From NCBI GenBank assembly GCA_020629545.1, contig JAHDDC010000005.1:3661-67660 (forward strand): a DNA stretch of 64,000 nt, in the 5' to 3' direction. Positions 5,861 through 64,000 of the stretch are shown in pieces. The position numbers were made by a program, and so were the translations under genes. A model generated the notes under the pieces. The model saw only the letters and a list, made by a program, of their open reading frames with translations, made no database searches and had not been told where the DNA came from. Position 1 is the stretch's first letter. The number at the start of each line of letters is the position of its first letter. Source of the stretch: Hellea sp. (GTDB lineage Bacteria > Pseudomonadota > Alphaproteobacteria > Caulobacterales > Maricaulaceae).

Positions 5861-5890
5861 TGCGCATTTTTCAATGCGATATAATACGCA
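5861..5890. promoter_or_regulatory. TGCGCA-N18-TACGCA inverted repeat (site A), upstream of hsaA
   Basis: The sequence is TGCGCAtttttcaatgcgatataaTACGCA. It ends 38 nt upstream of the hsaA ATG at 5823. Confidence 0.7.
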
Positions 5891-5923: not shown

Positions 5924-5952
5924 TGCGTAACAATTCTGAAATTTACTACGCT
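5924..5952. promoter_or_regulatory. TGCGTA-N17-TACGCT variant site (A2), 33 bp from site A
   Basis: The sequence is TGCGTAacaattctgaaatttacTACGCT. It overlaps the stop codon of the ligase gene. Confidence 0.5.
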
Positions 5953-7512: not shown

Positions 7513-7542
7513 TGCGCAACATAAGGACTAAAATAATACGCA
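7513..7542. promoter_or_regulatory. TGCGCA-N18-TACGCA inverted repeat (site F), ligase/SDR divergent region
   Basis: The sequence is TGCGCAacataaggactaaaataaTACGCA. An extra TACGCA half-site lies at 7474-7479, 33 bp to the left. Confidence 0.7.
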
Positions 7543-21191: not shown

Positions 21192-21221
21192 TGCGCAATA
21201 TTTTCTTGGATTTACTACGCT
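21192..21221. promoter_or_regulatory. TGCGCA-N18-TACGCT inverted repeat (site B), SDR/KstD-like divergent region
   Basis: The sequence is TGCGCAatattttcttggatttacTACGCT. Confidence 0.65.
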
Positions 21222-21254: not shown

Positions 21255-21271
21255 TGCGTAGTTATTACGCA
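21255..21271. promoter_or_regulatory. TGCGTA-N5-TACGCA compact palindrome (B2), 33 bp from site B
   Basis: The sequence is TGCGTAgttatTACGCA. It ends 21 nt upstream of the KstD-like ATG. Confidence 0.55.
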
Positions 21272-21291
21272 AAATAGCGACGAATTTATTT

Positions 21292-22992
21292 ATGACTCCA
21301 CAAGACGAACATTGGTATACGAACGTAGAACCTGTCCACAAAATCGATAATATCAACGCCATAGAATGGGATGTCGAAGCTGATGTTGTTGTCGTCGGTT
21401 TGGGCGGCGCAGGCGTCGCTTGTGCTCTCCAATCGCTGGAACTTGGTAACTCAGTGATTGCGATCGATAAGTTTGAAGGCGGTGGCGCCACCAAAGCCAG
21501 CGGCGGAGTTATCTATGCCGGCGGCGGAACATCGATTCAGAAGGCTGCAGGCGTCGAAGACACGCCAGAGAATATGTTCAATTATCTTAAGATGGAAATC
21601 GGTGAAATTGTCTCCGATACGTGCTTGCAAGAGTTTTGCGATCAAAGCGCTGAGACTGTTGAGTGGATGATCGGACATAATGTTGATATGCGGCCGACCC
21701 TTTGGCCCAAGAAAACTTCTTTTCCGGGGCCAACATTTTTTCTATATCACTCCGATAATAGCCTAATTCCGACTTACAAGGCCAATGCCGAACCGGCGGC
21801 GCGAGGCCATCGGGGCTATGCGCCACTAGAACAAAGCAAAAAGGCAACCAATTTAGGCGGCGCATTTTATCACCCCCTTAAAGACAAGGCGCTCGATATG
21901 GGCATGAGGTTTTTTGACTACCATGAAGCGCGGCAACTCATAACCGATAGTTCGGGGCGAGTAGTCGGATTAAAAGTGCTGCGGTTTGCAAATTCTGATT
22001 CCAAAAACAAATATCTCGACCTTCGCGCGAAAGCTCACAAGCTCATGGTGCGATTCCCTGCTATAATTCCGGGTGCAAAATTTTTCCTCAAGCGCGCTAT
22101 TAAAATGTTGGCGCAAGCGTCTAAACTTGAGACGGCGCGTGAGGCCGTTTTTATCAAAGCTCACAAAGGTGTTCTGTTATCATCGGGCGGATTCGTTTTT
22201 AACTCCAAAATGTTGAAACATTACGCGCCCAAATATACTCGGGCTTATCCATTAGGAACCGATGGAGACAATGGGGCTGGCATTCGTCTGGGACAGACCG
22301 CCGGCGGGGCTGTGGCCAATATGGACCGAATGACCGCCTGGCGGTTTATCAATCCGCCGCTTTCATTTGCAAAAGGAATGATCGTCAATCTCTCGGGAAA
22401 ACGATTTACAAATGAAATGGTTTACGGCGCCACACTTGGCGTGAATATGGTAGAAAACCATGACGGCGAAGCGTGGATGATCATGGACAAGGCTATTCTC
22501 AATAAGGCCTTAGAGGAAGTTGAGGGTGACAAGGCCCTGGATTTCCAAAGACAACTTGCCCAACTCAATGCCCGCTTTGGAACAAAAAAAGCCAAAACAT
22601 TAGCGCAACTCGCTCACAAAATCGGTATTCCTTCTCAAGCTTTAGGGGCCGAAGTCGCAGCGTATAATAGTTTTGCGAAATCCGGCAAAGATCCCTTTGG
22701 AAAGGCTGCTGACGATATATCCACAATTGGAATAGCACCATTTATCGCAATCAATATTGGACTATCAGCGAAACTGTTCCCTTGCCCTGCCTTAACGCTT
22801 GGTGGCTTGAAAGTCGATGAGTCGAGTGGTGCTGTACTGGATGATCGCAATAAATCCATAGGCGGGCTTTATGCTGCGGGTCGCAATGCAATTGGAGTCG
22901 CATCTTGGAATTATGTCAGCGGATTATCAATTGCCGATGGAATCTATTCTGGTCGGCGTGCCGCCCGATCAATGGCGAAGTCAAAAGCCTAA
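21292..22992 (+). CDS. FAD-dependent 3-ketosteroid dehydrogenase-like flavoprotein (KstD/TesH/TesI family)
   Basis: It has the dinucleotide fold DVVVVGLGGAGVACAL plus GGATKASGG. Its 566 aa fits the fumarate-reductase-like flavoprotein layout. Confidence 0.7.
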   Translation: MTPQDEHWYTNVEPVHKIDNINAIEWDVEADVVVVGLGGAGVACALQSLELGNSVIAIDKFEGGGATKASGGVIYAGGGTSIQKAAGVEDTPENMFNYLKMEIGEIVSDTCLQEFCDQSAETVEWMIGHNVDMRPTLWPKKTSFPGPTFFLYHSDNSLIPTYKANAEPAARGHRGYAPLEQSKKATNLGGAFYHPLKDKALDMGMRFFDYHEARQLITDSSGRVVGLKVLRFANSDSKNKYLDLRAKAHKLMVRFPAIIPGAKFFLKRAIKMLAQASKLETAREAVFIKAHKGVLLSSGGFVFNSKMLKHYAPKYTRAYPLGTDGDNGAGIRLGQTAGGAVANMDRMTAWRFINPPLSFAKGMIVNLSGKRFTNEMVYGATLGVNMVENHDGEAWMIMDKAILNKALEEVEGDKALDFQRQLAQLNARFGTKKAKTLAQLAHKIGIPSQALGAEVAAYNSFAKSGKDPFGKAADDISTIGIAPFIAINIGLSAKLFPCPALTLGGLKVDESSGAVLDDRNKSIGGLYAAGRNAIGVASWNYVSGLSIADGIYSGRRAARSMAKSKA

Positions 22993-23456
22993 GGTACGAT
23001 AATTTTCGCAAGACGATTATTATATTTAATCACGTCTACGGCAACCGTCGTTTCGACAAGCCTAACGCCTTCCAGATCCAGGATTTGATTGCTGGCGACA
23101 CGATGAACTTCCGGGAGCCCCTCGAATAGCCCGATAGCAAGAATATCAAACCGGCCCAATAAGATAATGACGCCGTTTATTTCCGGTATTTTCGCAACAT
23201 TCTTAGCAACCTTTTTGATCTGTCCTTGTTCGGCGTGTATCCCAATATAGGCTAGTTGTGGACGATCCAAATGCGCCATATTTGTGACGGCCGTAAAACG
23301 AATGTAGTTCTCTTCTTCAAGACGTTTAACCCTCGAACGTATAGTGCCCTCAGTGTAACCGAGTTCGGTCGCAATCTTACGATTAGATAGTCTGGCATCA
23401 CCAGATAAAAGCTCGATAATTTCCCGATCGAGATCGTCAATATTGTAATCATTCAT
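22989..23456 (-). CDS. Lrp/AsnC-family transcriptional regulator (second of a tandem pair)
   Basis: It has an N-terminal HTH (LDREIIELLSGDARLSNRKIATELGYTEGTIRSRVKRL) followed by a RAM-like domain. Its ATG overlaps the stop of the upstream paralog (TGATG). Confidence 0.85.
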   Translation of the reverse strand: MNDYNIDDLDREIIELLSGDARLSNRKIATELGYTEGTIRSRVKRLEEENYIRFTAVTNMAHLDRPQLAYIGIHAEQGQIKKVAKNVAKIPEINGVIILLGRFDILAIGLFEGLPEVHRVASNQILDLEGVRLVETTVAVDVIKYNNRLAKIIVP

Positions 23457-23917
23457 CAGATCGGTGCCACGTCAAAATCGAACTTGATTATATCGACCGC
23501 AAACGAAGGATCGATACTCCTAACGCCCTTAACTTTGGACAGTTTCTCAAGAAGAAAATCACTCATATTTTCTAGGCTAGGTAAAGTCACAAGAATTTCA
23601 ATATCGTGCTTCCCACTGACTAATTGTACGCTAGCGACCTCTTCCAAGCCGGCCAAATCTTGCGCAACATCATTTGCACGACGTCCCTTTACGTCTACGC
23701 CGATCGGAAGCAGGACATCATAATTGTAGGCTGAAAAGTCAGACACAGCGACAATTTTCATTGCCTGTGCTTTTTCCATTTTTCGAATTCGGGAGGCGAT
23801 GACGGTTGTCGTCACATCCAACAATTCCGCAATACGATGATTACTCGTCCTGCCGTCCTGTTTGAGAATTTCAATTATTTTCAAATCGATATCTGAAAAC
23901 TCATATGACACAGTCAT
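23456..23917 (-). CDS. Lrp/AsnC-family transcriptional regulator (first of a tandem pair)
   Basis: It has an HTH (LKIIEILKQDGRTSNHRIAELLDVTTTVIASRIRKM) followed by a RAM-like domain. Confidence 0.85.
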   Translation of the reverse strand: MTVSYEFSDIDLKIIEILKQDGRTSNHRIAELLDVTTTVIASRIRKMEKAQAMKIVAVSDFSAYNYDVLLPIGVDVKGRRANDVAQDLAGLEEVASVQLVSGKHDIEILVTLPSLENMSDFLLEKLSKVKGVRSIDPSFAVDIIKFDFDVAPI

Positions 23918-23975: not shown

Positions 23976-24009
23976 AGTGCGTAATTCTACCCCCTCAAAA
24001 ATACGCACT
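23976..24009. promoter_or_regulatory. AGTGCGTA-N18-TACGCACT inverted repeat (site C), upstream of the AsnC pair
   Basis: It has perfect 8-bp arms. It lies 59-92 nt upstream of the ATG at 23917. Confidence 0.7.
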
Positions 24010-31662: not shown

Positions 31663-31692
31663 TGCGTAGTTTTAGCAGGCTTTAACTACGCA
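31663..31692. promoter_or_regulatory. TGCGTAGTT-N12-AACTACGCA inverted repeat (site D; 6-bp cores spaced by 18), MFS/OYE divergent region
   Basis: It has perfect 9-bp arms. The left arm ends 1 nt from the MFS ATG (31661). Confidence 0.7.
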
Positions 31693-41093: not shown

Positions 41094-42494
41094 CTATGCA
41101 TCTTCTAATTTTTCAGGGATCAGCGCTTTGGCTGGATTTCTATCCCCAAGAACTTTGACTTTAAAACTCATCGCTGGTCCTGGCGTCGGAAAAGCTTTGG
41201 TTTTCAGCTCATAATTTGGGCTTTCCAGAGCTAGGTTTTTCCGGTGGAACAAGCGTGAAATCAGCATACCCATTAAAACTTCAGCTAGGTTTTGCCCCAG
41301 ACAAGTATGTGGCCCGCGTCCAAATGGAGAATAAGCGCCTGGCTTCATGTGCTCTTTGCGCTCATCATTGTAGCGATCAGGATCATAGGCAAGTGGGTTT
41401 GGAAAGTACTCTTCCAGATAGTGAGGTACCGAAGTTCCAATAATCAGCATTTCTTCAGCTGGAATTTTATAGCCTTCAAACTCGATTTCTTTGGTTGTCG
41501 TGCGCATCTGCCCAACAGCAACCGGCCACAAACGCATGCTCTCCTTGATACAGCCCTGAATGTAATGCAGATTCCGAACATCCATCGAGGTGACTGTACC
41601 TTTCTCGTACAGAGCATCAGCCTCGGCCTGTACTTTCTCAAGAACCCCGGGCGTTTTTAAAATGCCGTAAACAGCTCCTGACACCGTATTCGCGACCGTA
41701 TCGAGCCCGGCCACATAGGGACCGGTTAACAATACGGCTAAATCACGTTTCTGAACAAAATCAGGATCATCAATATGCGCCCTCATAATATCGCCCAGGA
41801 GGTTTTTCGGTAGGGTTCCATCCTCCGCATGCTTCATAAACCGAGCTACGGTTTTCTCCCCGAGTTCATCAACCCGTTTACTCGCTTTTTTAAATTTTGG
41901 ACTTTTCAAATACCATTTTGGCTTAACCCTGGCGACTAAAGTATTCAAAAGAAACAGAATATTGATTCTGATGTCCCGTACATATTCAAGCGGCGCTTCC
42001 CCGCTCATAAGTTCCCCAATAACCTGCACTATCATATATTGGAATGCTTCAAGCACTCCGGTCATATCGCCGTCGATCCAATCTCGTTCAATTGAATCGT
42101 CAATAAAGTGAGATATTTTATGATATTGCCCTTCGGCGGCCTCCCGGGAAAAACCCGCTCTCATAATAGCTCGCATCCTCCGATGCTCTTCCCCGTCGAT
42201 TTGAGTAAGGGTTTTTGAGGCACCGAAATGATTGACAAAATCATCCCAAAATTCTTTTGAACGCAGGCCCTCGCGTCCAGCTTTGGTTGACATGAACTTA
42301 GCCGCTTCGGCCCCCGCGATCACATATTGTTTTCGGCCGAAAACGTTGACTCGATAGACCGGTCCATATTCCTTGTAGCACCGGACAAAAAATGCGGCTG
42401 GATCCTTGCCCATTTCAAAGGTGTTCCCCACAAAAGGAATACCTTTAGCATCGGGGATTTTCTTATGACTAGAAGATTCTACGACAGCAACCAT
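41094..42494 (-). CDS. Cytochrome P450
   Basis: It has the heme-thiolate loop FGRGPHTCLGQNLA and an ESMR (ExxR) motif. The ATG overlaps the TetR stop (TAATG). Confidence 0.9.
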   Translation of the reverse strand: MVAVVESSSHKKIPDAKGIPFVGNTFEMGKDPAAFFVRCYKEYGPVYRVNVFGRKQYVIAGAEAAKFMSTKAGREGLRSKEFWDDFVNHFGASKTLTQIDGEEHRRMRAIMRAGFSREAAEGQYHKISHFIDDSIERDWIDGDMTGVLEAFQYMIVQVIGELMSGEAPLEYVRDIRINILFLLNTLVARVKPKWYLKSPKFKKASKRVDELGEKTVARFMKHAEDGTLPKNLLGDIMRAHIDDPDFVQKRDLAVLLTGPYVAGLDTVANTVSGAVYGILKTPGVLEKVQAEADALYEKGTVTSMDVRNLHYIQGCIKESMRLWPVAVGQMRTTTKEIEFEGYKIPAEEMLIIGTSVPHYLEEYFPNPLAYDPDRYNDERKEHMKPGAYSPFGRGPHTCLGQNLAEVLMGMLISRLFHRKNLALESPNYELKTKAFPTPGPAMSFKVKVLGDRNPAKALIPEKLEDA

Positions 42495-43231
42495 TAAAAT
42501 ACCTCTTGCAATAATGGTATTTCGTCTTCACCTATCTCGCGGGCAAACGCGCTGAATGCAGCCTTGATGAGGCTGTCTGTTTTTTGTTCGGGCGTCTCGG
42601 TGAATTGATCCATGACTTCGGACATAAGTGGGAAGTCGCCCGGGTCGAGCCTAGCGAACTGACGTCTTGCTACGACGTCCATCGTTTCGTCCTGAAACTC
42701 AAACTCTTGCTGCCGAATTGATTCAACAGCTCCGCCATAAGCGATAAGACCGATTTGATTGAACAGTCGCATGGCATGCATTGGCGCTATATTGCGTGAT
42801 TTCATAGCCGATAGGAACGGTTCGATCAGCTTAAAATGAACTTCAAAACCGAAATTTGATGGACTCATTGCGCTCATATAGGTTGGATTGTCCGCTAGAA
42901 TTTTTTGCAATCCCAGAACATAATCTTTCGCCAAAACCGACCAATGCTGACCAATGTCTTCAGGCAATGGGACCGCGGTCAAGGCATGTACCGCCGCTGC
43001 ACGCATCAAAGCCTTTCGGCTATCAAAATATTGATAAAGTGTCGCCGTCCCGACATTCAGATAAGTCGACAGCTTTTTCATTGTAAGCGTCTCAAGACCC
43101 ACCTCAATAGCCGCGTCCAATATCTCCTCATGAGTGAGAAGACGCGGGCGACCATAGGCGGGTGTCTTGACCGGTTTAGGCAAAGAAAATCCTTTCAAAT
43201 TGACTTTCCGAACGTTGTTCGGATATTCCAT
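42494..43231 (-). CDS. TetR-family transcriptional regulator
   Basis: It has the HTH LTMKKLSTYLNVGTATLYQYF. The start is ATG 43231 or TTG 43198. The ORF-track start at 43336 would overlap the divergent gene. Confidence 0.85.
   Translation of the reverse strand: MEYPNNVRKVNLKGFSLPKPVKTPAYGRPRLLTHEEILDAAIEVGLETLTMKKLSTYLNVGTATLYQYFDSRKALMRAAAVHALTAVPLPEDIGQHWSVLAKDYVLGLQKILADNPTYMSAMSPSNFGFEVHFKLIEPFLSAMKSRNIAPMHAMRLFNQIGLIAYGGAVESIRQQEFEFQDETMDVVARRQFARLDPGDFPLMSEVMDQFTETPEQKTDSLIKAAFSAFAREIGEDEIPLLQEVF
43205..43225. promoter_or_regulatory. TTTCCGAACGTTGTTCGGATA, degenerate copy of the TTTCCGAA-N5-TTCGGAAA palindrome at the TetR / crotonase head-to-head junction
   Basis: It matches 18 of 21 positions of the two better copies. 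It lies at the 5-prime end of the TetR gene and 8-26 nt upstream of the divergent gene. Confidence 0.6.
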
Positions 43232-43250
43232 TATGCTAAGGCCGAAGTCA

Positions 43251-53290: not shown

Positions 53291-53311
53291 TTTCCGAACG
53301 TCATTCGGAAA
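53291..53311. promoter_or_regulatory. TTTCCGAA-cgtca-TTCGGAAA palindrome in the CoA-transferase / ferredoxin divergent region
   Basis: It has perfect 8-bp arms and a 5-bp spacer. It is roughly centred between the starts at 53233 and 53375. Confidence 0.65.
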
Positions 53312-54625: not shown

Positions 54626-56020
54626 TTAGTCTCCTAACTTCGCCCTCACCTCACGTAATTTGTAATCCAACCAGTAGATCTCATAGGCATTTTGCGTCGT
54701 GTTTTCAGCGTTGGACTTGAGCATCTCAAGCGCGGCTTCGTGTAAGATAAGCGCCTCTTCAATTGATGTATCCCCAATCACGTCCAAAAGGTGAAGCGCC
54801 TCTAGAGGTTTGCCCCCGTCCATATAGCTTCTTGCACGGCCAATCAGGGCATCGACTCCGGCCAACTCTAATAAATCGGCATTCACGGATTCGCGGGAAA
54901 CATGATAAAGCTCTGTAGTTTTATCAAAGTGAAACCAAGTCATATAATATTCCCAAATAGATTTTACCGCCCAGGAAACCTTGCCATGTTCTTGGGTCAG
55001 GCTAAGCTCTGCTGGGAGCTGTATCTCCACCATCAAATCTTCGACGGATTTGCCCCCATTCATTCCCGCAATAACTGCATCATGGACATATTTCGTAGCT
55101 CCATGCATTCGTCGAAGACCATCGTCGATGGCTGCCTTTTCTGTAACTGGATTCCGGTGGGACGGAACAATCATTACTGGATCAAGTTCCATAATTTTCT
55201 CAAGGGACTGGATATATTCATGAGGTTTACGCACTTTTTCGCCGCGCATTGTAAAAACGTTCGGAAATTGGGGAAACAGAGGACCGAAAAAATCTCCGGC
55301 AAACAAAATCTTTTTCTTTGGCAACCATAATACAACATTGTCCGCGCCCTCTGCTCCTGGCAGCGCGTGAACCTCAAAATCTATTCCGCCTTGCGTGAAT
55401 TTATACGGCGTTCCATTCCGGACTTTGATAGTAGGCTCGATGCCACCATAAGCAAGTAATCCGATTTTGGGCGGCGTTTCCGGCATAAACGGAAACAGAG
55501 TCCGGTTCCGTCCCCATTGATACTCTTGTAGATCAGATAAATATCTTTGCTCTTCCTTGAATTCTTCATGAGCTACTATTTCAGTATTATCGTCTTGCCA
55601 GTATTTGGTCCCTCCAGCATGATCGGCATGAGAATGTGATAGAATGATATGGGTAAGTTTTTGTCCATCCAAGTGCGGCTCAAGAGCTTTGATTTGTTTG
55701 GGTACCTGCGTGACAAGTCCGGTATCAAACAGAACATTCCCCTCTGATGTTGTTATCAGGTGAGCATTTCCTACACCCGTTGCCTGGAATATGCCGGGCG
55801 CAATTTCTCTTGCCTCAATGGGAATATTGATAAATTCGGCCGCCACGGAACCTTGTGTGCGTGGATCGGAAGACATACGTTTGACCGCCACATCACCGAT
55901 CTTATCAAGGGCCCTAATCTGTGCTGCCTTTTTAGTATTGGGTGATGCCCAAAGGACGCCGCCTATGATAAGTGCTATCAGTAAGAAAGTGAATAGGCCC
56001 CGCTTCAAAACTCTAATCAT
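54626..56020 (-). CDS. MBL-fold alkyl/aryl-sulfatase-like protein (SdsA1-type core plus dimerisation region, no SCP2 domain), exported
   Basis: It has an N-terminal anchor or signal and the metal motif HSHADHAGG. The C-terminal helical region resembles the alkylsulfatase dimerisation domain. It is 464 aa, and I recall SdsA1 as being about 650 aa. The ATG overlaps the sulfatase stop by 8 nt. Confidence 0.65.
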   Translation of the reverse strand: MIRVLKRGLFTFLLIALIIGGVLWASPNTKKAAQIRALDKIGDVAVKRMSSDPRTQGSVAAEFINIPIEAREIAPGIFQATGVGNAHLITTSEGNVLFDTGLVTQVPKQIKALEPHLDGQKLTHIILSHSHADHAGGTKYWQDDNTEIVAHEEFKEEQRYLSDLQEYQWGRNRTLFPFMPETPPKIGLLAYGGIEPTIKVRNGTPYKFTQGGIDFEVHALPGAEGADNVVLWLPKKKILFAGDFFGPLFPQFPNVFTMRGEKVRKPHEYIQSLEKIMELDPVMIVPSHRNPVTEKAAIDDGLRRMHGATKYVHDAVIAGMNGGKSVEDLMVEIQLPAELSLTQEHGKVSWAVKSIWEYYMTWFHFDKTTELYHVSRESVNADLLELAGVDALIGRARSYMDGGKPLEALHLLDVIGDTSIEEALILHEAALEMLKSNAENTTQNAYEIYWLDYKLREVRAKLGD

Positions 56021-57605
56021 AGGTTATCTTGCCTTTATTGCCGTGGCGCTTTTGAAGTATTTTGCCCCTCATACCGGATACATAGTTATCAAATCCGTCT
56101 TCTTGAAGTTCCTCCGCAGGTATCACGGATTGGGCGTAGTCCACCGGCGCGCGCCAACCCGGATGAGGTATCAGAGCAACCCGAACTCCATTGATTGGAT
56201 GCTGAGCCCTCCATTTAGTGATTTTTGCAGACATGCGTTCAACCTGCGCAGGATTTGCGTCTGCCAGATTGGTTTTTTCATATGGATCATTTTCAATATC
56301 AAAAAGAAAACTTTCGACCTCCGTGGACTGAGATTTGTGATCAATAATCTGAACAAGTTTCCATTTCTGCTCGAGAACGCTCAAATGATATTTGTTAAAT
56401 ATTGGAGAATTAGACGCAAAGTATAAGTCGCCATTTCGCGGCGAAACCTTTGATCCGGTAATTGCTGGCCATCGGTTCTCACCATCCATTTTTTTTACAT
56501 TTTGAGGCTCAATTTTTGTCGCCGCAGCCAAAGTCGGAAATATATCTAGCACCGAAACAACAGAGTCATTAGTTTCGCCACCTTGAATTTTTGCAGGCCA
56601 GCGCAAAATTCCGCCAACGCGCACGCCGCCCTCAAAGGTTTCAAGCTTACCGCCTCGCAATGGCCCATTGTCGGCTCCAAAGGCTTTTAGACCACCATTA
56701 TCAGAGAAGAACAATATGATGGTGTTTTCGGTTAAGCCGTTATGATCAAGGCTCGACAAAATCCTACCAATGGCTTGATCCATACTATCCACCATCGCAG
56801 CATAAGTACGTTTCTTAGTTGGTAGGTTTCGGCGGCTTGCATATTTACTTTCAAGCTCCTCCGGGGCCTGCATTGGTGAATGCGGCGCAAGAAACGGAAC
56901 ATAAAGAAAAAACGGTTTATTTGGATCGCGCAGTTCGTTGATATATTTTGCGGCTTCTTCACCGTGAATATCAGTTGCGTAACGACCTTCACGAATAATC
57001 GATTGACCATTTTCCTGTAGGTCATAGCCATTGGCCGATGTGAAATCGAAATAGTCAACTTGTGTATTCAAATGTCCAACAAAATGATCAAAGCCGCGCA
57101 TATTTGGCACAAGTGGCTCAGTGGTATGCCCTAAATGCCATTTCCCGATCATAGCGGTTTGATAGCCTGCGGCCTGAAATGATTGTGGCATGAAATGTTC
57201 TTCCGGAGATATACCTCCATTTTGCCAAGGCTGAAATCCCGCGTAAACAGACCCAAGTTTCATTGGATCTCGAGCTGTCATCAAGGCTGAACGTGTCGGG
57301 GTACATATTGGCATGACATAAAGACGATCCAGCGTTAGGCCCTCGGTCGCTAGTCGATCAATATTGGGGGTTTCTATGTCGCTGCCACGAAAACCAACAT
57401 CGCCCCAACCTAAATCGTCAGCGAGTAAAATAACGACATTGGGTAACTTATATCTCGGCTCTGACATTTGCGGAGATATAGATTTAGGGTCGCTCTGAAC
57501 GGACTGAGCAGGGCTTTCGGCATCGAATTGCCTGCTAGACGATTCCGAATTGCAGCTCGCAAGAAAAAGAACAGCGAGAAACAATATGCTAGTTCGGAAC
57601 ATCAT
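56013..57605 (-). CDS. Type I (formylglycine, Cys-type) sulfatase, lipoprotein
   Basis: It has the sulfatase signature CTPTRSALMTAR. I set the start to ATG 57605 (MMFRTSILFLAVLFLASC lipobox), 6 nt after GAGG. The ORF-track ATG at 57617 abuts a terminator T-tract. Confidence 0.85.
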   Translation of the reverse strand: MMFRTSILFLAVLFLASCNSESSSRQFDAESPAQSVQSDPKSISPQMSEPRYKLPNVVILLADDLGWGDVGFRGSDIETPNIDRLATEGLTLDRLYVMPICTPTRSALMTARDPMKLGSVYAGFQPWQNGGISPEEHFMPQSFQAAGYQTAMIGKWHLGHTTEPLVPNMRGFDHFVGHLNTQVDYFDFTSANGYDLQENGQSIIREGRYATDIHGEEAAKYINELRDPNKPFFLYVPFLAPHSPMQAPEELESKYASRRNLPTKKRTYAAMVDSMDQAIGRILSSLDHNGLTENTIILFFSDNGGLKAFGADNGPLRGGKLETFEGGVRVGGILRWPAKIQGGETNDSVVSVLDIFPTLAAATKIEPQNVKKMDGENRWPAITGSKVSPRNGDLYFASNSPIFNKYHLSVLEQKWKLVQIIDHKSQSTEVESFLFDIENDPYEKTNLADANPAQVERMSAKITKWRAQHPINGVRVALIPHPGWRAPVDYAQSVIPAEELQEDGFDNYVSGMRGKILQKRHGNKGKITYD

Positions 57606-57618
57606 GCCAAGCCTCATG

Positions 57619-57648
57619 AAAAAAAGATGCGCCTAAATGGGCGCATCT
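57619..57648 (-). terminator. Intrinsic terminator-like hairpin between TonB receptor and sulfatase genes
   Basis: The minus strand reads AGATGCGCC-CATTTA-GGCGCATCT followed by TTTTTT. That is a 9-bp GC-rich stem, a 6-nt loop and a T-tract. Confidence 0.7.
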
Positions 57649-57695
57649 GAACAATTAGATCCTGGGATCAGTGATTTAACCTTCCGGTCAATCAC

Positions 57696-60371
57696 CTAGA
57701 ATTTGTGACTAACATTAACACCAATTGAACGAGGCTGCCCGTAAACAACTGTTCGATAAGCAAATGTTTCAAACGGCAAGCTATCGATCAAATATTCCTC
57801 GTCTAACAAATTCGTTCCCCAGACAGATACAGTCACTGGCATGTCATAGGCGTCCAGACTGACTCCAACACGGCCGTTTACCAAGCCAAATGAAGGTAGA
57901 TACAAGTCGTTTTGAGGAATCGATAGAATCTCATCTTTGTAAGCATAAGTCAGATTGGCAAATACGTCTGAGTTCCCGAAGCTGCCATTATAGTCAGCAG
58001 CCACGGAGAACGAATTTTTAGGCGTGCCCTGCAACTCATCGCGAACTTCAATTTGTCCGGTTAGAGGGTTGGTCACATCACCGGCATCACCATCAACATA
58101 GCCATAAGACCCACGAAGTGTAATTTCGTCCGTCAATGCATATTGTGCATCGGCTTCAAATCCCCACATTTGCTCATCGGTATTAACGATCGCTCGTGAC
58201 GTGGCAATCAACGGATTAAGCGCGACAGTCGTTTGCTTATTTGTAAAATCATAATAAAAACCAGCGGCATTTAAGCGGAAATTTCCACCTAAATCAGCTT
58301 TAAAGCCAGCTTCATAAGCCGCGATGTCTTCACGCTCAAATAAGAAGTCAGCCCCGTAAGTTTCACCGGGCAATCTAAGACCGACGGCAGCGCTGTTAAA
58401 GCCGCCTGATCTAAAGGCTTCTTTATAAGACGCGTAAAGCAGGACGTCATCGTTCATATCATACTCTAAGGTGAACGCAGGATCGAGAATGCTTTCATCA
58501 TAGCTACCGATATTGGGAGCAATAGTATTCCCTGTTAGATCAATATTATCATTGAAGAAAGGTGACTTGGCTTGACCGAAGCCATCCTTACTTTCATCTG
58601 AGAACCGCATACCGGCCGTCAAGCGTAGATCATCAGAGATGCTGTAGGTTAGCTGGCCGTAAAAAGCGAGAGCTGTTGTATCAATTTCCAGCGTATTAGA
58701 CGCTGATTGACGGGCTGCCCCCAATGCAGACGAAAGCGTTGGAATACAGAAGTTATTGGCCGCACTTGGAGACAAAAAGTCTGCCCCCGCGCAGTTCGAA
58801 CCATCACCTACTAACTGTGTAATAAGAGGAAATGCTCCAAATGGGTTTACACTGCCGTCAGCAGGAAGAAATTGCCCGCCGAGAACGCCAAGTAATATTC
58901 CAGCCGCGGGAATTGGCCCTAAGGCTGAAGGTGGGAATGAAACCGGACCTCGTGGATCTTGGCCACTTGCGGCATCAAGACCTCCTATAAAGCCTGCGAC
59001 ATTGGGGGCTGTTACCCTCGGGTCGAACTGACCCAGGACAAACAAATAGTCATTGGCTTGAGTTAAGTTTGGTCTACCACGACCTGTACCTGTACTTTCA
59101 TCAAAGTAAAATGCCCCGCCAGTATATTCAACTCTTCCGTCATCGGTTGATCCATTAAACGTAAATTCAGCACTTAATTGCTTGTGACCATCGAGATTGG
59201 TAGAGCCGCCTGGAGGTGACAAAAACAACCCTCTTTCGGCTGGATCACCACTAAACGCTGAACTGTAATCAGCCCTCAAGGATTGGCCGGCAACCTGAAA
59301 AGCAAATGGTAAAGGTGCCAAAGCGCTATTAAAACCACCAACGATTTGGTTGATTGCGCCGGGGTTGGCCGTAGGTATTAGTGCAACTTGGCGACTACTA
59401 TCAGCTTCACGATAAGCCGCTGTAAATTTCGCGTCATCAAAGAACCCGTTGCTGTTTGAATTATAATTCAGCGTCGCCGACAGACCTTTTGTCTTGAGAT
59501 CACCAGGTTCAGCAGTGAAGGAAGTCGCTACATCTTCCTGACGCCCCTCAAAGGTTTGTATCGCCGGAGCAAATAGACCTGCTCCGAAACCTGTTATGGA
59601 CTGATAGAAAAGTGGTTCCTTCTTTGTATTGTTCAAGTCTCCGGCCAAAACCAAATCGAATTGATCGTCAAACTCCACGCCTAAAGAGGCGCGCACACCG
59701 AACTTTTCTTCCCCTGCAAAATCAGCACCTGGTCCGCTATTTTCGACCCAACCATCACGATCGGCCCAAAGCCCTGACACACGTGCCGCTACTTTATCTC
59801 CCATTGGAACATTAAAAGCTGCTGAAACTTTCTTGTGATTAAATGATCCGTATTCCGCAGAGGCTTTTCCTCCAAACTCGCCCATGACAGGTTTAGCTGA
59901 AATTAGGTTGACCGCCCCGCCAACCGAGTTACGTCCATATAGCGTGCCCTGCGGTCCTTTCAAAATTTCGACCCGTTCCAAATCCGGCATATCAATTGCC
60001 AGACCTTGGGTTCGTCCCTGATATACCCCATCTTGATAGATTGCGATCCGGCTGTCCTGTCCGATTTGAGGGTCAAACGTGCCTACGCCGCGAATGCTGA
60101 TCCGAACACCATTTGGATCAGCCGGGTTTTGAGTCACATACACACCGGGCGTGATCACAGCGATATCTTCCAGCCCCTCAATCCGGTTTGTTTCCAGTGC
60201 CTCAATATCAAAAGCTTGAATCGCTATCGGTACGTCCTGGATGCTTTCAGTCTTTTTCTGAGCCGTAACGATTATTTCATCGAGTTGAGCATAGGCCGGA
60301 GCACTGAAAGCTAACAAGGACGTTGAAACGGCCAAACTGACGAATGCCTTTTTTGAGACGGAATGGAACAT
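57696..60371 (-). CDS. TonB-dependent outer-membrane receptor
   Basis: It has a signal peptide ending APAYA-Q, a plug region (DEIIVTA, GRNSVGGAVNLIS), a long beta-barrel and a terminal Phe. I set the start to ATG 60371, preceded by GGAG. Confidence 0.9.
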   Translation of the reverse strand: MFHSVSKKAFVSLAVSTSLLAFSAPAYAQLDEIIVTAQKKTESIQDVPIAIQAFDIEALETNRIEGLEDIAVITPGVYVTQNPADPNGVRISIRGVGTFDPQIGQDSRIAIYQDGVYQGRTQGLAIDMPDLERVEILKGPQGTLYGRNSVGGAVNLISAKPVMGEFGGKASAEYGSFNHKKVSAAFNVPMGDKVAARVSGLWADRDGWVENSGPGADFAGEEKFGVRASLGVEFDDQFDLVLAGDLNNTKKEPLFYQSITGFGAGLFAPAIQTFEGRQEDVATSFTAEPGDLKTKGLSATLNYNSNSNGFFDDAKFTAAYREADSSRQVALIPTANPGAINQIVGGFNSALAPLPFAFQVAGQSLRADYSSAFSGDPAERGLFLSPPGGSTNLDGHKQLSAEFTFNGSTDDGRVEYTGGAFYFDESTGTGRGRPNLTQANDYLFVLGQFDPRVTAPNVAGFIGGLDAASGQDPRGPVSFPPSALGPIPAAGILLGVLGGQFLPADGSVNPFGAFPLITQLVGDGSNCAGADFLSPSAANNFCIPTLSSALGAARQSASNTLEIDTTALAFYGQLTYSISDDLRLTAGMRFSDESKDGFGQAKSPFFNDNIDLTGNTIAPNIGSYDESILDPAFTLEYDMNDDVLLYASYKEAFRSGGFNSAAVGLRLPGETYGADFLFEREDIAAYEAGFKADLGGNFRLNAAGFYYDFTNKQTTVALNPLIATSRAIVNTDEQMWGFEADAQYALTDEITLRGSYGYVDGDAGDVTNPLTGQIEVRDELQGTPKNSFSVAADYNGSFGNSDVFANLTYAYKDEILSIPQNDLYLPSFGLVNGRVGVSLDAYDMPVTVSVWGTNLLDEEYLIDSLPFETFAYRTVVYGQPRSIGVNVSHKF

Positions 60372-60513
60372 GGTAATCTCCCCTTTATATTCCACGAGTA
60401 GGTATTATTAAGTAAGCTCTAGGGCATTTCGACACACCGCGCAACTTCAACCTCGCAGAATTAAAGCCGAATACTGCGCGTTTTGATCATTTTCGTTAGA
60501 AATTTGCTCATTT

Positions 60514-60543
60514 TGCGTAGCAATGTTGCATTTTTGTTACGCA
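60514..60543. promoter_or_regulatory. TGCGTA-N18-TACGCA inverted repeat (site E), TonB-receptor/SnoaL divergent region
   Basis: The sequence is TGCGTAgcaatgttgcatttttgtTACGCA. Confidence 0.7.
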
Positions 60544-60618
60544 CTTTTCCTTCCGAAGGTTGATTTTAAGAACAATTTCACTATCAGAAATTCTTCATCG
60601 ATAAAAATGAAGGTTAAT

Positions 60619-61086
60619 ATGTCACTAGAATCACGCATCGCCAGACTAGAGGCCGAAAGTGATATCCGAAGACTAAAAGCGCGATATCTTAATGCTTGCG
60701 ACAACAAAGATATCGAACGTATGCGGGCCTGCTTTACCGAAGATGCGATTATCGACTTCCCGCCTTTGGGTGAATTTGATGTAGATGGCCTTGTCGAAAT
60801 CTTCACTCAAATGGCAGCAATGACGTCCATTATCGATAGTCATCACGGGAACAATCCAGAAATTACCATTACGGGAGAACAGGCTACAGCTGTCTGGAAC
60901 CTCGGATTCTCGACTTTTAACCCCGAAGATAATAGCTTCAGACTGCTCGCGGGATTTTATCACGATCGATATGAAAAAAGAAATGGTGAATGGCTGATCA
61001 GCTATACCCGTTCGGCCCCCAGAAAAATTTTCGACGGACAACTCAGCGATGCCGGCGCGATCGCGCATCTGGTTAGGAACGCATAA
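60619..61086 (+). CDS. NTF2/SnoaL_4-like protein
   Basis: The N-terminus LESRIARLEAESDIRRLKARYLNACD is typical of the family. I set the start to ATG 60619, preceded by AAGG. Confidence 0.7.
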   Translation: MSLESRIARLEAESDIRRLKARYLNACDNKDIERMRACFTEDAIIDFPPLGEFDVDGLVEIFTQMAAMTSIIDSHHGNNPEITITGEQATAVWNLGFSTFNPEDNSFRLLAGFYHDRYEKRNGEWLISYTRSAPRKIFDGQLSDAGAIAHLVRNA

Positions 61087-61096
61087 AGGAGAAGAT

Positions 61097-61858
61097 ATGA
61101 AATACGCTGTGGTTAGCGGAGGTGGTTCAGGGATTGGAGAGATCGTGCTTAAACGCCTTCAGAGCCAAGGCTACAATGTAATTTGCATCGATCTAAAGAA
61201 CGCCGACATAACAGCGGATCTATCAACGCCGGAAGGTCGCTCAATTGCGGTTTCAGAAACTCTCGAGGCTTGTGGTCATAAAATTGATAGACTTGTTCTT
61301 GCGGCTGGCCTGGGCGGACATCTGAAAGACGGAGCACTGGTTGCCCGCGTCAACTATTTTGGCGCTGTAGCTTTGCTGGATGGTTTCAAAAATGCTTTAG
61401 CAGAAACCCATGGCCGCTGCGTCGTTATCGGTTCAAATAGTTCGCAAATGCGCATCGATCCGAATAGTCCTATCGTTGATGCGCTTTTAGAGGGCGACGA
61501 AAATAAAGCCATGGGCGTGATTGGCGATGCACCCGCAACAGGTGTTTACGGAAATTCTAAACACGCCTTAACCCGGGCCGTGCGGCGCCGCGCAGCAGAA
61601 TGGGGGCATGCCGGGATATCGATCAATGTAATTGCGCCCGGACCAACACAGACAGCAATGCTACAAGGTGTTATCGATGATCCGGTCATTAGCAAAAGCC
61701 TGGACATGATCCCCATTCCGAAAAAACGCTTTGGTACTGCGGAGGAGATGGCAGACATTATAGAATTTTTGCTCTCTGACACAGCTGACTACATGCAAGG
61801 TAGCGTCATTTACGTTGATGGCGGAACCGATGCACAGTTACGTCCTGACGCATTTTAA
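61097..61858 (+). CDS. Short-chain dehydrogenase/reductase
   Basis: It has SGGGSGIGE and YGNSKHA. I set the start to ATG 61097, preceded by GGAG. Confidence 0.8.
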   Translation: MKYAVVSGGGSGIGEIVLKRLQSQGYNVICIDLKNADITADLSTPEGRSIAVSETLEACGHKIDRLVLAAGLGGHLKDGALVARVNYFGAVALLDGFKNALAETHGRCVVIGSNSSQMRIDPNSPIVDALLEGDENKAMGVIGDAPATGVYGNSKHALTRAVRRRAAEWGHAGISINVIAPGPTQTAMLQGVIDDPVISKSLDMIPIPKKRFGTAEEMADIIEFLLSDTADYMQGSVIYVDGGTDAQLRPDAF

Positions 61859-61859
61859 C

Positions 61860-61884
61860 ACTTTCCGAATGACATTCGGAAAGT
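61860..61884. promoter_or_regulatory. ACTTTCCGAATG-A-CATTCGGAAAGT perfect 25-bp palindrome between two SDR genes
   Basis: It has 12-bp arms and the same TTTCCGAA...TTCGGAAA core as 53291-53311. No T-tract follows. Confidence 0.6.
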
Positions 61885-61924
61885 CCGTGTCTATAACACT
61901 ACAAAACAGAATATGGGGAATATC

Positions 61925-62803
61925 ATGGGTGAACAGAAAGCTGCCTTCATAACCGGAGCCAATATGGGCATGGGCGCATTAAAAGCCAGGACACTTGCTG
62001 AGCGTGGTTGGAAGGTTTTTGCTGGTGTTTTGCCTTCTGCCCCGACAGATCTACTAGGCGTACACCCTAACCTTGTCCATGTCGACCAGGACGTGACCTC
62101 AGAGGAATCTGTTCAAGCAAGTGCTGAAAAGGTTCGATCAGAGCTTGACGGCGCCGGGCTTGACCTACTGATAAACAATGCTGGTATTGCCAATGTGGGC
62201 ATTGGTGTCATTGAAGGGGTTGATCTTGATCGTGCTAAATTCATGTTTGAAGTGAATACATGGGGGCCAATGAGGGTTCTCCAAGCATTTTTACCCATGA
62301 TTAGGCAAAACGCACCGCATTCACGGATTATCAATTTTGCATCAGGTGCCGTTAAAGCCAATCCCGCAGCATCCGGAATTTATAATATGTCAAAACACGC
62401 CGTTATCGGTATTACGAATACTCTGCGCAATGAGCTTGCACCTTTTGGCATACAGGTCACATCTGTTGAGCCCGGAGCCGTTAAAACAAACATGACGGCA
62501 AACTCGGCTGACACGACACAAAATATTTGGAAAGAAGTCTCGCAGGAAATGAATGACATTTACGGACCGTTTCTCAAAGAAGCAACAACAACCGTAATGG
62601 TCGACACTCTCGAGAATAAAGCCAACGATCCTCAGGATGTTGCAAATCAGGTTTTAGGTCTACTGGAAATAAAAACCTGGAAACCGTCATATATGGTCGG
62701 GAAAGACGTAAAAGCCTTGGGCCCGATGCATAAAATATTGCCCTCAAGAACTTTTGAAAAAATCTTACAAAAAGCCGTCAAAATCCCGCGCTACAAAGGA
62801 TAA
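61925..62803 (+). CDS. Short-chain dehydrogenase/reductase
   Basis: It has TGANMGMG and YNMSKHA. The start is ATG 61925, or ATG 61913 as in the ORF track. Confidence 0.8.
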   Translation: MGEQKAAFITGANMGMGALKARTLAERGWKVFAGVLPSAPTDLLGVHPNLVHVDQDVTSEESVQASAEKVRSELDGAGLDLLINNAGIANVGIGVIEGVDLDRAKFMFEVNTWGPMRVLQAFLPMIRQNAPHSRIINFASGAVKANPAASGIYNMSKHAVIGITNTLRNELAPFGIQVTSVEPGAVKTNMTANSADTTQNIWKEVSQEMNDIYGPFLKEATTTVMVDTLENKANDPQDVANQVLGLLEIKTWKPSYMVGKDVKALGPMHKILPSRTFEKILQKAVKIPRYKG

Positions 62804-62806
62804 AAC

Positions 62807-64000
62807 ATGAGTGAAATTAAGAAACGCTTTGAAGAATTACAAAGCTCCACTCTGAAACTCCGGAATAGCTCCGCAGAAGAACGGATCGAAAAACTGCAGT
62901 CCATTTGGCAGGGCATTATTGCCCGTAAAGAAGATCTATTCAAAGCCGGAGCTGAAGAACGAGGATGCCATGAGGTCGATATTGCGGCCGAGCTTGTCAT
63001 GGTTAAAGGTGAAATTGATTATGTCAGTAAGCACCTTGCAAAATGGGTGAAGCCCCAAAAGGTCAAAGGCTCATTGAGTAGTTTTGGCAAAAAGAGCGAA
63101 ATTCGTTACCAATCTAAAGGCGTCGTTCTAAATATTGCAGCCTATAACGCACCGACAGCGGAATGTTTTGTACCTGCAATAGCGGCAATAGCCGCCGGAA
63201 ACGCTATTGCTATCAAGCCTTCCGAATTTGCGCCGGCATCAGCGCAAATAATTGAAGAAATTATACATGAGGCATTACCCCGTAGTGAGGCCGATGTTTT
63301 TCAAGGCGGCGTAAAAGTATCTCAAGAGCTCCTCGCACAACCATTCAACCATATCTACTATACAGGCGGAAATAATGTCGGCAAAATTGTCATGAAAGCT
63401 GCCGCTGATCATTTTGCCAGCGTCACGCTGGAAATGGGCGGCAAGTCACCCGTTATAATTGATGAAACAGCCGACCTTGAGAATGCGGCAACTAAATTGG
63501 CCTGGGGCCGAGTCATGAATGCAGGTCAAGTCTGTATAGCACCAGAATATGTTGTGGTTCACGAAAGTCGGCAAGCCGAGTTTCAGAAACTAATTTCCGA
63601 CAAAATTCAAGCGCTCTATAACTCCAAAGGCGACGGTCTTGAAAATTCTGAATATGTACCGCGCATCATTAACGCACGTCATCACAAACGAATTACAGGT
63701 CTCATCAAAGATGCCGTCAAAAAAGGCGCAACCATCGTTACAGGCGGCAAAGCCGATGCAAAAGATCGTTACATAGAACCCACTGTCCTTACGGATATGA
63801 CCGAAGACATGGACATTATGAACGAGGAAGTATTCGGCCCCGTTATGGCGGTACTACCGTATAAAACTCGCGAACAGGCCCTTGAAATTATTTCTCATAG
63901 GCCCAATCCGCTGGCGATGTATATTTATTCCAAAGACGACGAAGCTATTGAATATTTTTTGACTAACACGTCTTCCGGGTCTGCTGTCGTGAACAATAAC
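62807..64000 (+). CDS. Class-3-type NAD(P)+ aldehyde dehydrogenase, 5-prime partial (runs off the window end)
   Basis: My own translation from ATG 62807 is open to position 64000 (398 codons). It contains LEMGGKSP (catalytic Glu), GQVCIAPEY (catalytic Cys) and EEVFGP. Confidence 0.85.
   Translation, partial: MSEIKKRFEELQSSTLKLRNSSAEERIEKLQSIWQGIIARKEDLFKAGAEERGCHEVDIAAELVMVKGEIDYVSKHLAKWVKPQKVKGSLSSFGKKSEIRYQSKGVVLNIAAYNAPTAECFVPAIAAIAAGNAIAIKPSEFAPASAQIIEEIIHEALPRSEADVFQGGVKVSQELLAQPFNHIYYTGGNNVGKIVMKAAADHFASVTLEMGGKSPVIIDETADLENAATKLAWGRVMNAGQVCIAPEYVVVHESRQAEFQKLISDKIQALYNSKGDGLENSEYVPRIINARHHKRITGLIKDAVKKGATIVTGGKADAKDRYIEPTVLTDMTEDMDIMNEEVFGPVMAVLPYKTREQALEIISHRPNPLAMYIYSKDDEAIEYFLTNTSSGSAVVNNN

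Follow-up and report, generated by a model that had tools for sequence, protein, structure and literature searches.

A TonB-dependent receptor and two predicted exported sulfatases share a conserved operator with a putative steroid catabolic island in Hellea sp.

Results

Organisation of the receptor-sulfatase locus

The 64,000-nucleotide stretch of contig JAHDDC010000005.1 from Hellea sp. analysed here (hereafter the window) contains a predicted steroid catabolic island and, with it, three minus-strand open reading frames (ORFs) in a row between positions 54626 and 60395, which encode a TonB-dependent outer-membrane receptor, an S1 sulfatase and a homologue of the alkylsulfatases with a metallo-β-lactamase (MBL) fold. 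An earlier reading made from the letters alone (the sequence-only reading) had proposed that these collinear genes form an operon for the uptake and desulfation of sulfated steroids, under the same operator as genes for steroid ring cleavage. The gene assignments are borne out by the domains found, namely Plug and TonB barrel domains in the first ORF, PF00884 in the second and Lactamase_B with Alkyl_sulf_dimr in the third. The receptor gene (57696..60371, minus strand) encodes 891 residues, with a Plug domain at residues 44-153 (Pfam, 1.5e-18) and a TonB_dep_Rec_b-barrel domain at residues 529-855 (Pfam, 1e-31), and the N-terminus of the protein has a signal peptide ending AYA before Q and a TonB-box-like DEIIVTA. 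The gene starts with the ATG at 60371, behind the Shine-Dalgarno sequence AGGGGAGA, and both elements align in seven related genomes. The intergenic region upstream is common to the receptor gene and a divergent plus-strand unit (60607..64000) comprising a SnoaL-like gene, two genes for short-chain dehydrogenases/reductases (SDR) and an aldehyde dehydrogenase (ALDH) gene that exceeds the window end. Related loci, designated here by L and a number, were compared with this arrangement: an MBL-alignment scan with one genome per species gave 61 loci with orthologues at 43-71% identity, and gene neighbourhoods were examined by tblastn with all window proteins and, for L078-L082, through gene tables. 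In L078 the receptor gene is likewise flanked by SDR, SDR and ALDH genes.

The second gene (56013..57605, minus strand; PF00884, 2e-59) encodes a Cys-type (formylglycine) S1 sulfatase lipoprotein, with the lipoprotein signal MMFRTSILFLAVLFLAS directly before C and the formylglycine motif C-T-P-T-R, part of the CTPTRS motif that had been recognised before. Its ORF can be extended to 57617; since a GAGG Shine-Dalgarno sequence precedes the ATG at 57605, this ATG, and not 57617, is the most likely start. The best relatives in the PDB are the S1_19 enzyme structures 6bia/6b0j (3e-72) and 1fsu (ARSB), and the alignment with 6bia runs through C-T-P-T-R-S-A-L-M-T-A-R, ADDLG, GKWHLG and SDNGG, in which the DD, CxPxR, GKWH and SDNG residues are kept. 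A second S1 paralogue of the same subfamily is found in related islands (L002, 2087; L008, 15108; L078, 1-1165; L080, 8410-11590), in tandem in Parasphingorhabdus, and would fit a need to act on several sulfate positions or several substrates.

The end of the S1 gene and the start of the MBL gene overlap by 8 nt (ATGATTAG, 56013-56020), which locates the overlap reported in the sequence-only reading. The MBL gene (54626..56020, minus strand) encodes a type III (MBL-fold) alkylsulfatase homologue of 464 aa with Lactamase_B (2.5e-22) and Alkyl_sulf_dimr (5e-10) domains, the latter, the dimerisation domain PF14863, scoring 5.2e-10 and 40.3 bits against a cutoff of 26. In sequence searches it matches SdsAP, SdsA1, Pisa1 and YjcS weakly (~1e-14), with ~20% identity to characterised alkylsulfatases, and the top 13 Foldseek matches of its AlphaFold2 model (pLDDT 79.6) are all alkylsulfatases (TMq 0.60-0.65 over ~435 columns). 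The protein stops after the dimerisation domain, at 464 aa compared with 630-670 aa in characterised enzymes, and the target-normalised TM-score is 0.47-0.49. No Pfam match to an SCP2-like C-terminal domain was obtained for the protein, which therefore lacks this type III feature, as had been stated before. The combination of a formylglycine sulfatase and an SCP2-less MBL enzyme had also been called unusual; the SCP2-less architecture itself is not rare, with >1300 database homologues found.

The active-site residues of the MBL protein are strongly conserved. H129, H131, D133, H134, E224, D243 and H288 (H129-S-H131-A-D133-H134) are invariant in 26 homologues and align to the metal ligands of SdsAP and SdsA1 (ligand list from PMC5426288), the bridging Glu of those enzymes corresponding to Asp243 here. 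The segment PNVFTMRGEKVRKP aligns with HNLYTLRGAEVRD of SdsA1 and HNTYSLRGAKIRDP of SdsAP, the stretch N254-x2-T257-x-R259-x4-R264 is invariant in the same number of homologues, and Pro253 stands where SdsA1 and SdsAP have His before the conserved Asn. From the Pisa1 and SdsA1 structures, we take N254, T257, R259 and R264 to be sulfate ligands. Export signals had been claimed for both sulfatases and are present on both, as the lipobox LFLAS-C on the S1 protein and as a hydrophobic N-terminal signal or anchor, modelled as a helix by AlphaFold, on the MBL protein, so a periplasmic site of action is expected for both enzymes. A distant SCP2-less MBL homologue (33% identity) is encoded on plasmid pBSY17_1 of Sphingobium sp. 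RAC03, an algal-phycosphere isolate (L083; NZ_CP016453.1, 13215-17480), in an operon of SDR, zinc-dependent alcohol dehydrogenase, MBL and sulfotransferase genes, near which lie genes for a TonB receptor, NTF2/SnoaL-like proteins, SDRs, an aldehyde dehydrogenase and CoA ligases.

A conserved operator upstream of the receptor gene

The intergenic region upstream of the receptor gene contains operator site E (TGCGTAGCAATGTTGCATTTTTGTTACGCA, 60514..60543), a perfect match to TGCGTA-N18-TACGCA that was identified by motif scan and cross-genome conservation. Further perfect copies were found by the motif scan upstream of a tandem pair of Lrp/AsnC-family regulator genes (23978..24007), and at 31663..31692, between an operon of major facilitator superfamily (MFS) transporter, CoA-ligase, Amidohydro_2 and KshA-like genes and an OYE/DUF3604 unit, a position whose equivalent in L081 also has an operator. 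Copies with one mismatch lie upstream of hsaA (5861..5890, with an N17 variant next to it at 5924-5952) and in the divergent region between fadD3 and an SDR gene (7513..7542), and two copies with two mismatches each occupy the interval between SDR and KstD-like genes (21192-21221 and 21255-21284), the second of which encloses a compact palindrome, TGCGTA-N5-TACGCA, at 21255-21271. The window thus has seven copies with at most two mismatches, compared with 1.8 expected, and none of 100 shuffles reaches seven; all seven are intergenic, by gene starts, whereas the matches with three mismatches are intragenic bar one. When spacers from 3 to 25 were scanned with at most one mismatch, N18 gave five matches, N17 one (near the hsaA site) and N5 one (in the KstD-like region), and all other spacings were rejected, having no match. 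The motif is real and specific. The sequence-only reading had placed it upstream of hsaA and the KstD-like gene as well as at site E, which proved correct, and it extends to the fadD3, MFS/OYE and Lrp/AsnC promoters.

Site E is conserved beyond the window. Together with its spacer it is found as TGCGTAACAAAAATGCAACnnnGCTACGCA in eight loci (L004, L005, L006, L007, L027, L061, L078 and L079), and with one mismatch in L008 and in L080 from Parasphingorhabdus. Across the alphaproteobacterial loci with the conserved operator, the receptor is 50-62% identical to that of the window, and the distance from the operator to the receptor ATG is 143-158 nt in the window and seven measured loci (Hellea, Algimonas and Parasphingorhabdus). 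In seven loci (L004, L005, L006, L007, L027, L078 and L079) an SDR gene ends on one side of the operator and the receptor gene starts on the other, and since this upstream neighbour is co-directional, the operator can serve only the receptor there. In L002, which has no receptor gene at this place, a perfect operator is located directly upstream of the S1-MBL pair. Membership of the receptor-S1-MBL module in the regulon of the predicted steroid island is supported by this shared and conserved operator.

Two further elements lie between site E and the receptor start. A weak promoter-like site, TCGAAA-17-AATAAT (60404..60432, minus strand), was recovered by consensus scan, and its AATAAT/TAATAA block is partly conserved in the cross-genome alignment of the receptor upstream region. 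Between this site and the operator, a second conserved block, defined by invariant alignment columns (60437..60482), holds the half-site-like sequences CGCGCA, TGCGAG and TTGCGC and may comprise proximal regulator sites and the -35 region.

Candidate regulators of the operator

The tandem Lrp/AsnC-family genes (22989..23917, minus strand; Pfam) encode candidate operator binders. Perfect operators are found beside such a pair in the window, L080, L081 and L082: in L081 and L082 the operator is 95-165 bp upstream of the pair, next to a KstD-like gene, and in L080 (Parasphingorhabdus) one cluster brings together the Lrp/AsnC pair, a KshA-like gene, an OYE gene, two S1 sulfatase genes, a receptor gene and an MBL gene, with operators preceding the KshA-like gene and the receptor gene. 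The Lrp/AsnC homologues are unusually conserved (72-94% identity) across many marine contigs, on which homologues of the MBL and S1 enzymes lie too. We know of no role for this class of regulator in the control of steroid catabolism. Two contiguous Lrp/AsnC genes are present in the bile-salt cluster of Sphingobium sp. Chol11 (PMC12882949). Because perfect operators adjoin the pair, because its homologues share contigs with those of the MBL and S1 enzymes and because the Chol11 cluster likewise has such a pair, we assign the operator to the tandem Lrp/AsnC proteins as the most likely binders of TGCGTA-N18-TACGCA. The constant presence of a perfect operator beside the pair also suggests a master regulon for the steroid island that is run by it.

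An alternative candidate binder is a TetR-family regulator (42494..43231, minus strand) that is 60% identical to a TetR protein in L082, though it has a palindrome of its own: a different motif, CCGAAC-N3-GTTCGG, is carried at its start (43208-43222). Near-copies of this palindrome lie at 53294-53308, in the promoter region of CoA-transferase and ferredoxin genes, and at 61865-61879, between the two SDR genes, and with three mismatches allowed the pattern is no commoner than expected by chance. As a mark of the sulfatase promoter it was ruled out, as good copies are confined to 43208, 53294 and 61865. The sites look like a second, interleaved regulon that leaves out the receptor promoter.

A conserved hairpin between the receptor and sulfatase genes

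An intrinsic-terminator-like hairpin with a 9-bp GC-rich stem, AGATGCGCC-CATTTA-GGCGCATCT followed by T7, is located at 57618..57648 on the minus strand. The 95-nt spacer between the receptor and S1 genes folds with -33.5 kcal/mol (z -3.76), and none of 200 shuffles folds as well. A hairpin with a T-run is found at the same place in L004, L006, L007, L008, L010, L055, L061 and L080, and because the sequences differ among these related loci, the structure itself is under selection. An Rfam scan of the whole window returned nothing, so the hairpin does not correspond to a known riboswitch or small RNA.

A conserved hairpin in this position means that co-transcription of receptor and sulfatase genes needs read-through. 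In the window the distance between the T-run and the S1 Shine-Dalgarno sequence is ~10 nt, which leaves no room for a promoter, so the S1-MBL pair would have to be transcribed through the hairpin in this genome. We read the hairpin as an attenuator or 3'-end stabiliser, which would set a high receptor-to-enzyme ratio. These results divide the earlier proposal that 60372-60618 is the sole promoter region of one operon co-regulated with the steroid genes. The shared strand and the gene overlap agree with a single operon, and the shared, conserved operator places the module in the regulon of the island; the part that is called into question by the conserved hairpin 3' of the receptor gene is the single transcript.

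Conservation of the module across genomes

Among named homologues, the closest are from Hellea, Algimonas, Hyphomonadaceae/Maricaulaceae and Parasphingorhabdus. The sequence is present in three DNA runs of an algae metagenome, and a look for RNA runs containing it found none. Metagenome-assembled genomes (MAGs) of Hellea, Algimonas, Caulobacterales and Parvibaculales have the three genes in the same order (receptor, S1, MBL; tblastn), followed, as in the window, by genes for an alpha/beta-hydrolase, ferredoxin, double CoA-transferase, Ltp, ligase, CoA-transferase and amidohydrolase, an order with which the L078 and L079 gene tables agree. In at least 10 alphaproteobacterial loci the trio stands beside alpha/beta-hydrolase, ferredoxin, double CoA-transferase, ChsH2-like, Ltp and ligase genes. 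The 8-nt overlap of the two sulfatase genes, as TATGA(G/T)TAA, is kept in six Hellea, Algimonas and Caulobacterales loci and likewise in the gene tables of L078 and L079. In Halieaceae and Luminiphilus a gene of the same S1 subfamily (46-48% identity) is divergent from the adjacent MBL gene, which heads an operon with genes for Amidohydro_2, a KshA-like Rieske oxygenase and an SDR, adjoined by a P450 gene. At least 22 contigs, paired by their lengths, are common to the best-120 match lists of the S1 and MBL enzymes.

The partner of the MBL gene varies among loci. In 17 loci, mostly MAGs of Halieaceae and other Pseudomonadales and including L021 (7878-9890), L025 (7716-9959) and L032 (7557-9959), a DUF3604-like gene of 670-800 aa stands in the place of the S1 gene and is translationally coupled to the MBL orthologue by a 4-nt overlap. 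Two exported DUF3604 proteins are also encoded in operator-controlled units of the window (24055-25959, minus strand; 33091-35151, plus strand). A sequence search found no relatives of DUF3604 among solved structures, and no informative literature on this family was found.

The surrounding steroid island

On gene content, the window is a predicted steroid island. FadD3 scores 675.6 bits against an equivalog cutoff of 657 (NCBIfam), and in the lower pathway (HsaEFG) the aldolase and acetaldehyde dehydrogenase score above their cutoffs and the hydratase below (351 against 409). The island also encodes a flavin reductase, two proteins with Rieske and KshA_C domains, a KstD-like FAD_binding_2 protein, a P450, several CoA ligases and transferases, and ChsH2/Ltp-like proteins.

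Several further genes lie outside the module. Exported hydrolase-like proteins include a Y_phosphatase3 protein with an N-terminal anchor (9993-10919), a DUF885 protein with a signal resembling that of twin-arginine translocation (TAT) and a lipobox VAAC (14653-16512), and a dienelactone-hydrolase lipoprotein (17310-18461), and a 198-aa lipoprotein of no assigned family (16590-17186) is also exported; the set hints at periplasmic processing of heavily conjugated or esterified steroids. The MFS transporter gene directly under the operator at 31663 (30363-31661, minus strand) has a weak match to PF03137 (OATP; 4e-15, with no stretch passing alone), which may be mere cross-similarity among MFS proteins; the OATP family in animals carries steroid sulfates and bile salts. 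Out of place in this setting is a gene for an Imm11-family immunity protein (44229-44834, minus strand; 4e-18), between an enoyl-CoA hydratase fragment and an amidohydrolase gene. The enoyl-CoA hydratase domain covers residues 177-348 of a TTG-started ORF (43167-44219, plus strand) that overlaps the TetR gene, and the real gene is probably either a shorter one (about 43695-44219) or a truncated one.

Discussion

We propose that the receptor, the S1 sulfatase and the MBL enzyme may form an outer-membrane and periplasmic front end for sulfated steroids within a steroid-catabolic regulon, a reading to which we give an even chance of being right. The receptor would carry an anionic sulfated steroid across the outer membrane, candidate substrates being algal or diatom sterol 3-sulfates, or bile-alcohol and polyhydroxysteroid sulfates of animals. 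Periplasmic desulfation would follow, through the formylglycine S1 enzyme and the binuclear-metal MBL enzyme of the sec/primary-alkylsulfatase class; speculatively, the two sulfatases might divide the work by position or configuration, such as ring secondary as opposed to side-chain primary sulfates, or alpha as opposed to beta. The free steroid alcohol would then pass into the cell and be oxidised by SDR and aldehyde dehydrogenases, including those of the divergent SnoaL-SDR-SDR-ALDH unit, before activation to CoA esters by ligases and transferases and breakdown by the 9,10-seco route through KshA-like, KstD-like and HsaABCD enzymes. The 30-bp operator, with the tandem Lrp/AsnC proteins as its likely binders, would tie expression of the module to that of the island, and the terminator after the receptor gene would yield an excess of receptor, with the translationally coupled sulfatase pair expressed via read-through. 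In this scheme the gene content, the motifs, the operator, the synteny and the conservation are observed, and we infer the substrate, the localisation, the assignment of regulator to operator, the direction of regulation and the read-through. A wider version, which we put forward tentatively and regard as doubtful, would have a widespread marine module (Hellea, Algimonas, Parasphingorhabdus and Halieaceae) dedicated to sulfated steroids, with the first steroid-specific type III sulfatase next to a formylglycine sulfatase, and with a heteromeric Lrp/AsnC regulator over the whole island acting via the 30-bp operator; the SCP2-less MBL enzyme might then be inverting on ring sec-sulfates, or act on terminal bile-alcohol sulfates.

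Several observations weigh against this proposal. The hairpin sits between the receptor stop (57696) and the S1 Shine-Dalgarno sequence, and a conserved structure of this kind is thus internal to the module. Operator E in the window is 64 nt from the divergent SnoaL gene, compared with 143 nt from the receptor gene. HsaA (316 against 450), HsaC (241 against 450) and HsaD (175 against 400) score below their equivalog cutoffs, while being best or near-best matches. The solved relatives of the S1 enzyme are S1_19 and S1_16 carrageenan sulfatases and ARSB, a GalNAc-4-sulfatase (E 3e-72 to 1e-58), and human steryl-sulfatase (1p49, 8eg3) is a weaker match, at ~5e-42 over a partial alignment. Since its nearest solved relatives are carbohydrate sulfatases, and not the steryl-sulfatases that would have indicated steroid specificity, the sequence gives no pointer to steroids for the S1 enzyme, which may act on steroid substrates nonetheless. 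About 17 loci with MBL orthologues (~50% identity; Halieaceae and other Pseudomonadales) have no S1 partner; their MBL gene is instead coupled to one for a DUF3604-like protein, and few of the neighbours are clearly steroid-related. The absence from the window of a gene for a formylglycine-generating enzyme (FGE), pointed out in the sequence-only reading, was upheld: neither an FGE nor an anaerobic sulfatase-maturating enzyme (anSME) domain was detected in the ORFs scanned with Pfam or NCBIfam, five SDR-like ORFs having been left unscanned.

The best-placed alternative, which we consider unlikely, is that the trio handles a sulfated compound other than a steroid (algal oligosaccharides, alkyl or fatty-alcohol sulfates, or sulfolipids) or scavenges sulfur, and merely adjoins the island. 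The carrageenan and GalNAc sulfatases among the relatives of the S1 enzyme would suit this, as would the algae metagenome as a source, the frequent import of glycans by TonB-dependent receptors in general, the MBL orthologues in contexts with few steroid-related neighbours and the sulfotransferase gene beside the distant MBL homologue of Sphingobium RAC03. On the other side, the window and the gene tables of L078-L082 contain no glycoside hydrolase, polysaccharide lyase or sulfur-starvation gene, the promoters of hsaA, fadD3 and the KstD-like gene have the same operator, whose place upstream of the receptor gene is kept across orders, and KshA-like, Amidohydro_2 and P450 genes remain neighbours of the S1-MBL pair in two proteobacterial classes.

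A second alternative, which we judge improbable, keeps the operator as the control of the receptor, and perhaps of the divergent SnoaL-SDR-SDR-ALDH unit, and makes the sulfatase pair a separate, terminator-insulated unit that is not co-regulated with the 9,10-seco genes. It draws on the strength of the hairpin and T7 after the receptor stop, on the equivalent hairpins in eight related loci and on the 60-170 nt that follow the terminator in several of those eight, which is room enough for a promoter. Against it stand the ~10 nt left in the window, where no promoter fits, the operator directly upstream of the S1-MBL pair in the receptor-less L002, the conserved gene order and the fact that hairpins after receptor genes are often attenuators or mRNA stabilisers. 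Quite improbable is a third, in which the module is steroid-related but the MBL enzyme has as its substrate some other ester or conjugate, or whatever its upstream partner produces, which would account for its interchangeable pairing with S1 or DUF3604-like hydrolases: the translational coupling, which involves S1 in one clade but a DUF3604-like partner in a second, the ~20% identity to characterised alkylsulfatases, the replacement of His by Pro253 and the missing SCP2 domain, which recruits alkyl chains (PMC5426288), are compatible with it, but the family shows no variation in the seven metal ligands or in the Asn/Thr/Arg/Arg stretch, and the top 13 structural matches are all alkylsulfatases.

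The proposed front end for sulfated steroids has its closest described counterpart in Sphingobium sp. Chol11. There, a side-chain cluster encodes the bile-salt-induced TonB receptor Nov2c232, the MFS transporter Nov2c225, a CoA ligase, the Rieske protein Nov2c228 and the amidase Nov2c229, and a TAT-exported amidase, Bsa (Nov2c227), acts in the periplasm to deconjugate glyco- and taurocholate ahead of their uptake (bioRxiv 10.1101/2021.05.19.444901). Both have a TonB receptor and an MFS transporter, a deconjugating hydrolase that is exported, a CoA ligase, tandem Lrp/AsnC genes and a KshA-like Rieske protein together with an amidohydrolase, a likeness drawn from the published description; the conjugate differs, being a glycine or taurine amide cleaved by an amidase in Chol11, whereas two sulfatases are present here. 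By this analogy, the window locus looks like a sulfate-ester counterpart of the Chol11 arrangement of receptor and periplasmic amidase. The Chol11 work does not mention a sulfatase or describe an operator or a role for the Lrp/AsnC genes, and a review of bile-acid degradation makes no mention of sulfatases (PMC8399759). Steroid catabolism in Hyphomonadaceae was predicted by Holert et al. 2018, who also obtained cholesterol-degrading isolates of Halieaceae, again without mention of sulfatases (PMC5790920). Another receptor that may be likened by description, the EdcT-type receptor of Caenibius (Novosphingobium) tardaugens, takes up estradiol, is encoded with steroid catabolic genes and is needed for good growth on a steroid; its ligand is an unconjugated estrogen, and no sulfatase partner is reported for it (as cited in bioRxiv 10.1101/2021.05.19.444901 and PMC8399759).

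The individual enzymes and the operator also have described relatives. With SdsA1 and SdsAP (primary alkyl) and Pisa1 (inverting sec-alkyl) the MBL protein shares the fold with its helical dimerisation domain, HxHxDH and N-x2-T-x-R-G-x3-R, and it differs from them in its low identity, its lack of the SCP2-like domain, Asp243 for the bridging Glu and Pro for His; its genomic context is a predicted steroid island, whereas enzymes of the SdsA1/SdsAP/Pisa1 type belong to surfactant use or sulfur scavenging. The S1 enzyme has the PF00884 fold, CxPxR and the catalytic residues in common with the S1_19/S1_16 carrageenan sulfatases, arylsulfatase B and human steryl-sulfatase (STS), a member of the class that hydrolyses steroid 3-sulfates, and differs from human STS in being a bacterial lipoprotein without a membrane-spanning hairpin. 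A bile acid sulfate sulfatase of Pseudomonas (Comamonas) testosteroni is said to invert the 3-alpha-sulfate to 3-beta-OH and to depend on Mn2+, which would suit an inverting mechanism of the MBL type. This enzyme resembles the module as a steroid-desulfating enzyme of a steroid degrader (Tazuke et al. 1994, as cited in PMC4207315). The operator recalls the KstR/KstR2 (TetR) regulons of Actinobacteria, in which a single palindromic operator is repeated before many steroid operons, but its 6-bp arms are 18 bp apart, its likely binder is of the Lrp/AsnC family, and a TetR protein with its own palindrome coexists with it.

Among these elements, the gene families are known already, as is the concept of pairing a TonB receptor with periplasmic deconjugation in steroid degraders. 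In the accessible literature we found no paper connecting sulfatases with gene clusters for bacterial steroid catabolism, and no description of the conserved pairing of S1 and SCP2-less MBL enzymes in steroid islands, of the 30-bp operator or of its link to tandem Lrp/AsnC proteins. Sulfated sterols and the sulfates of bile alcohols are common marine compounds, with diatoms, sponges, echinoderms and fish as their sources; some of them serve as signals, sterol sulfates causing cell death in diatoms and cyprinol sulfate acting as a kairomone. To our knowledge, the bacterial removal and mineralisation of marine steroid sulfates have not been characterised. If the proposal is correct, the module would provide candidate genes for the first step of marine sulfated-steroid breakdown, would add a new substrate class for MBL-type sulfatases and would offer, in the Lrp/AsnC proteins and the 30-bp palindrome, a testable regulator-operator pair for the steroid regulons of marine alphaproteobacteria, and its genes could serve as markers with which to track the turnover of sulfated steroids in metagenomes.

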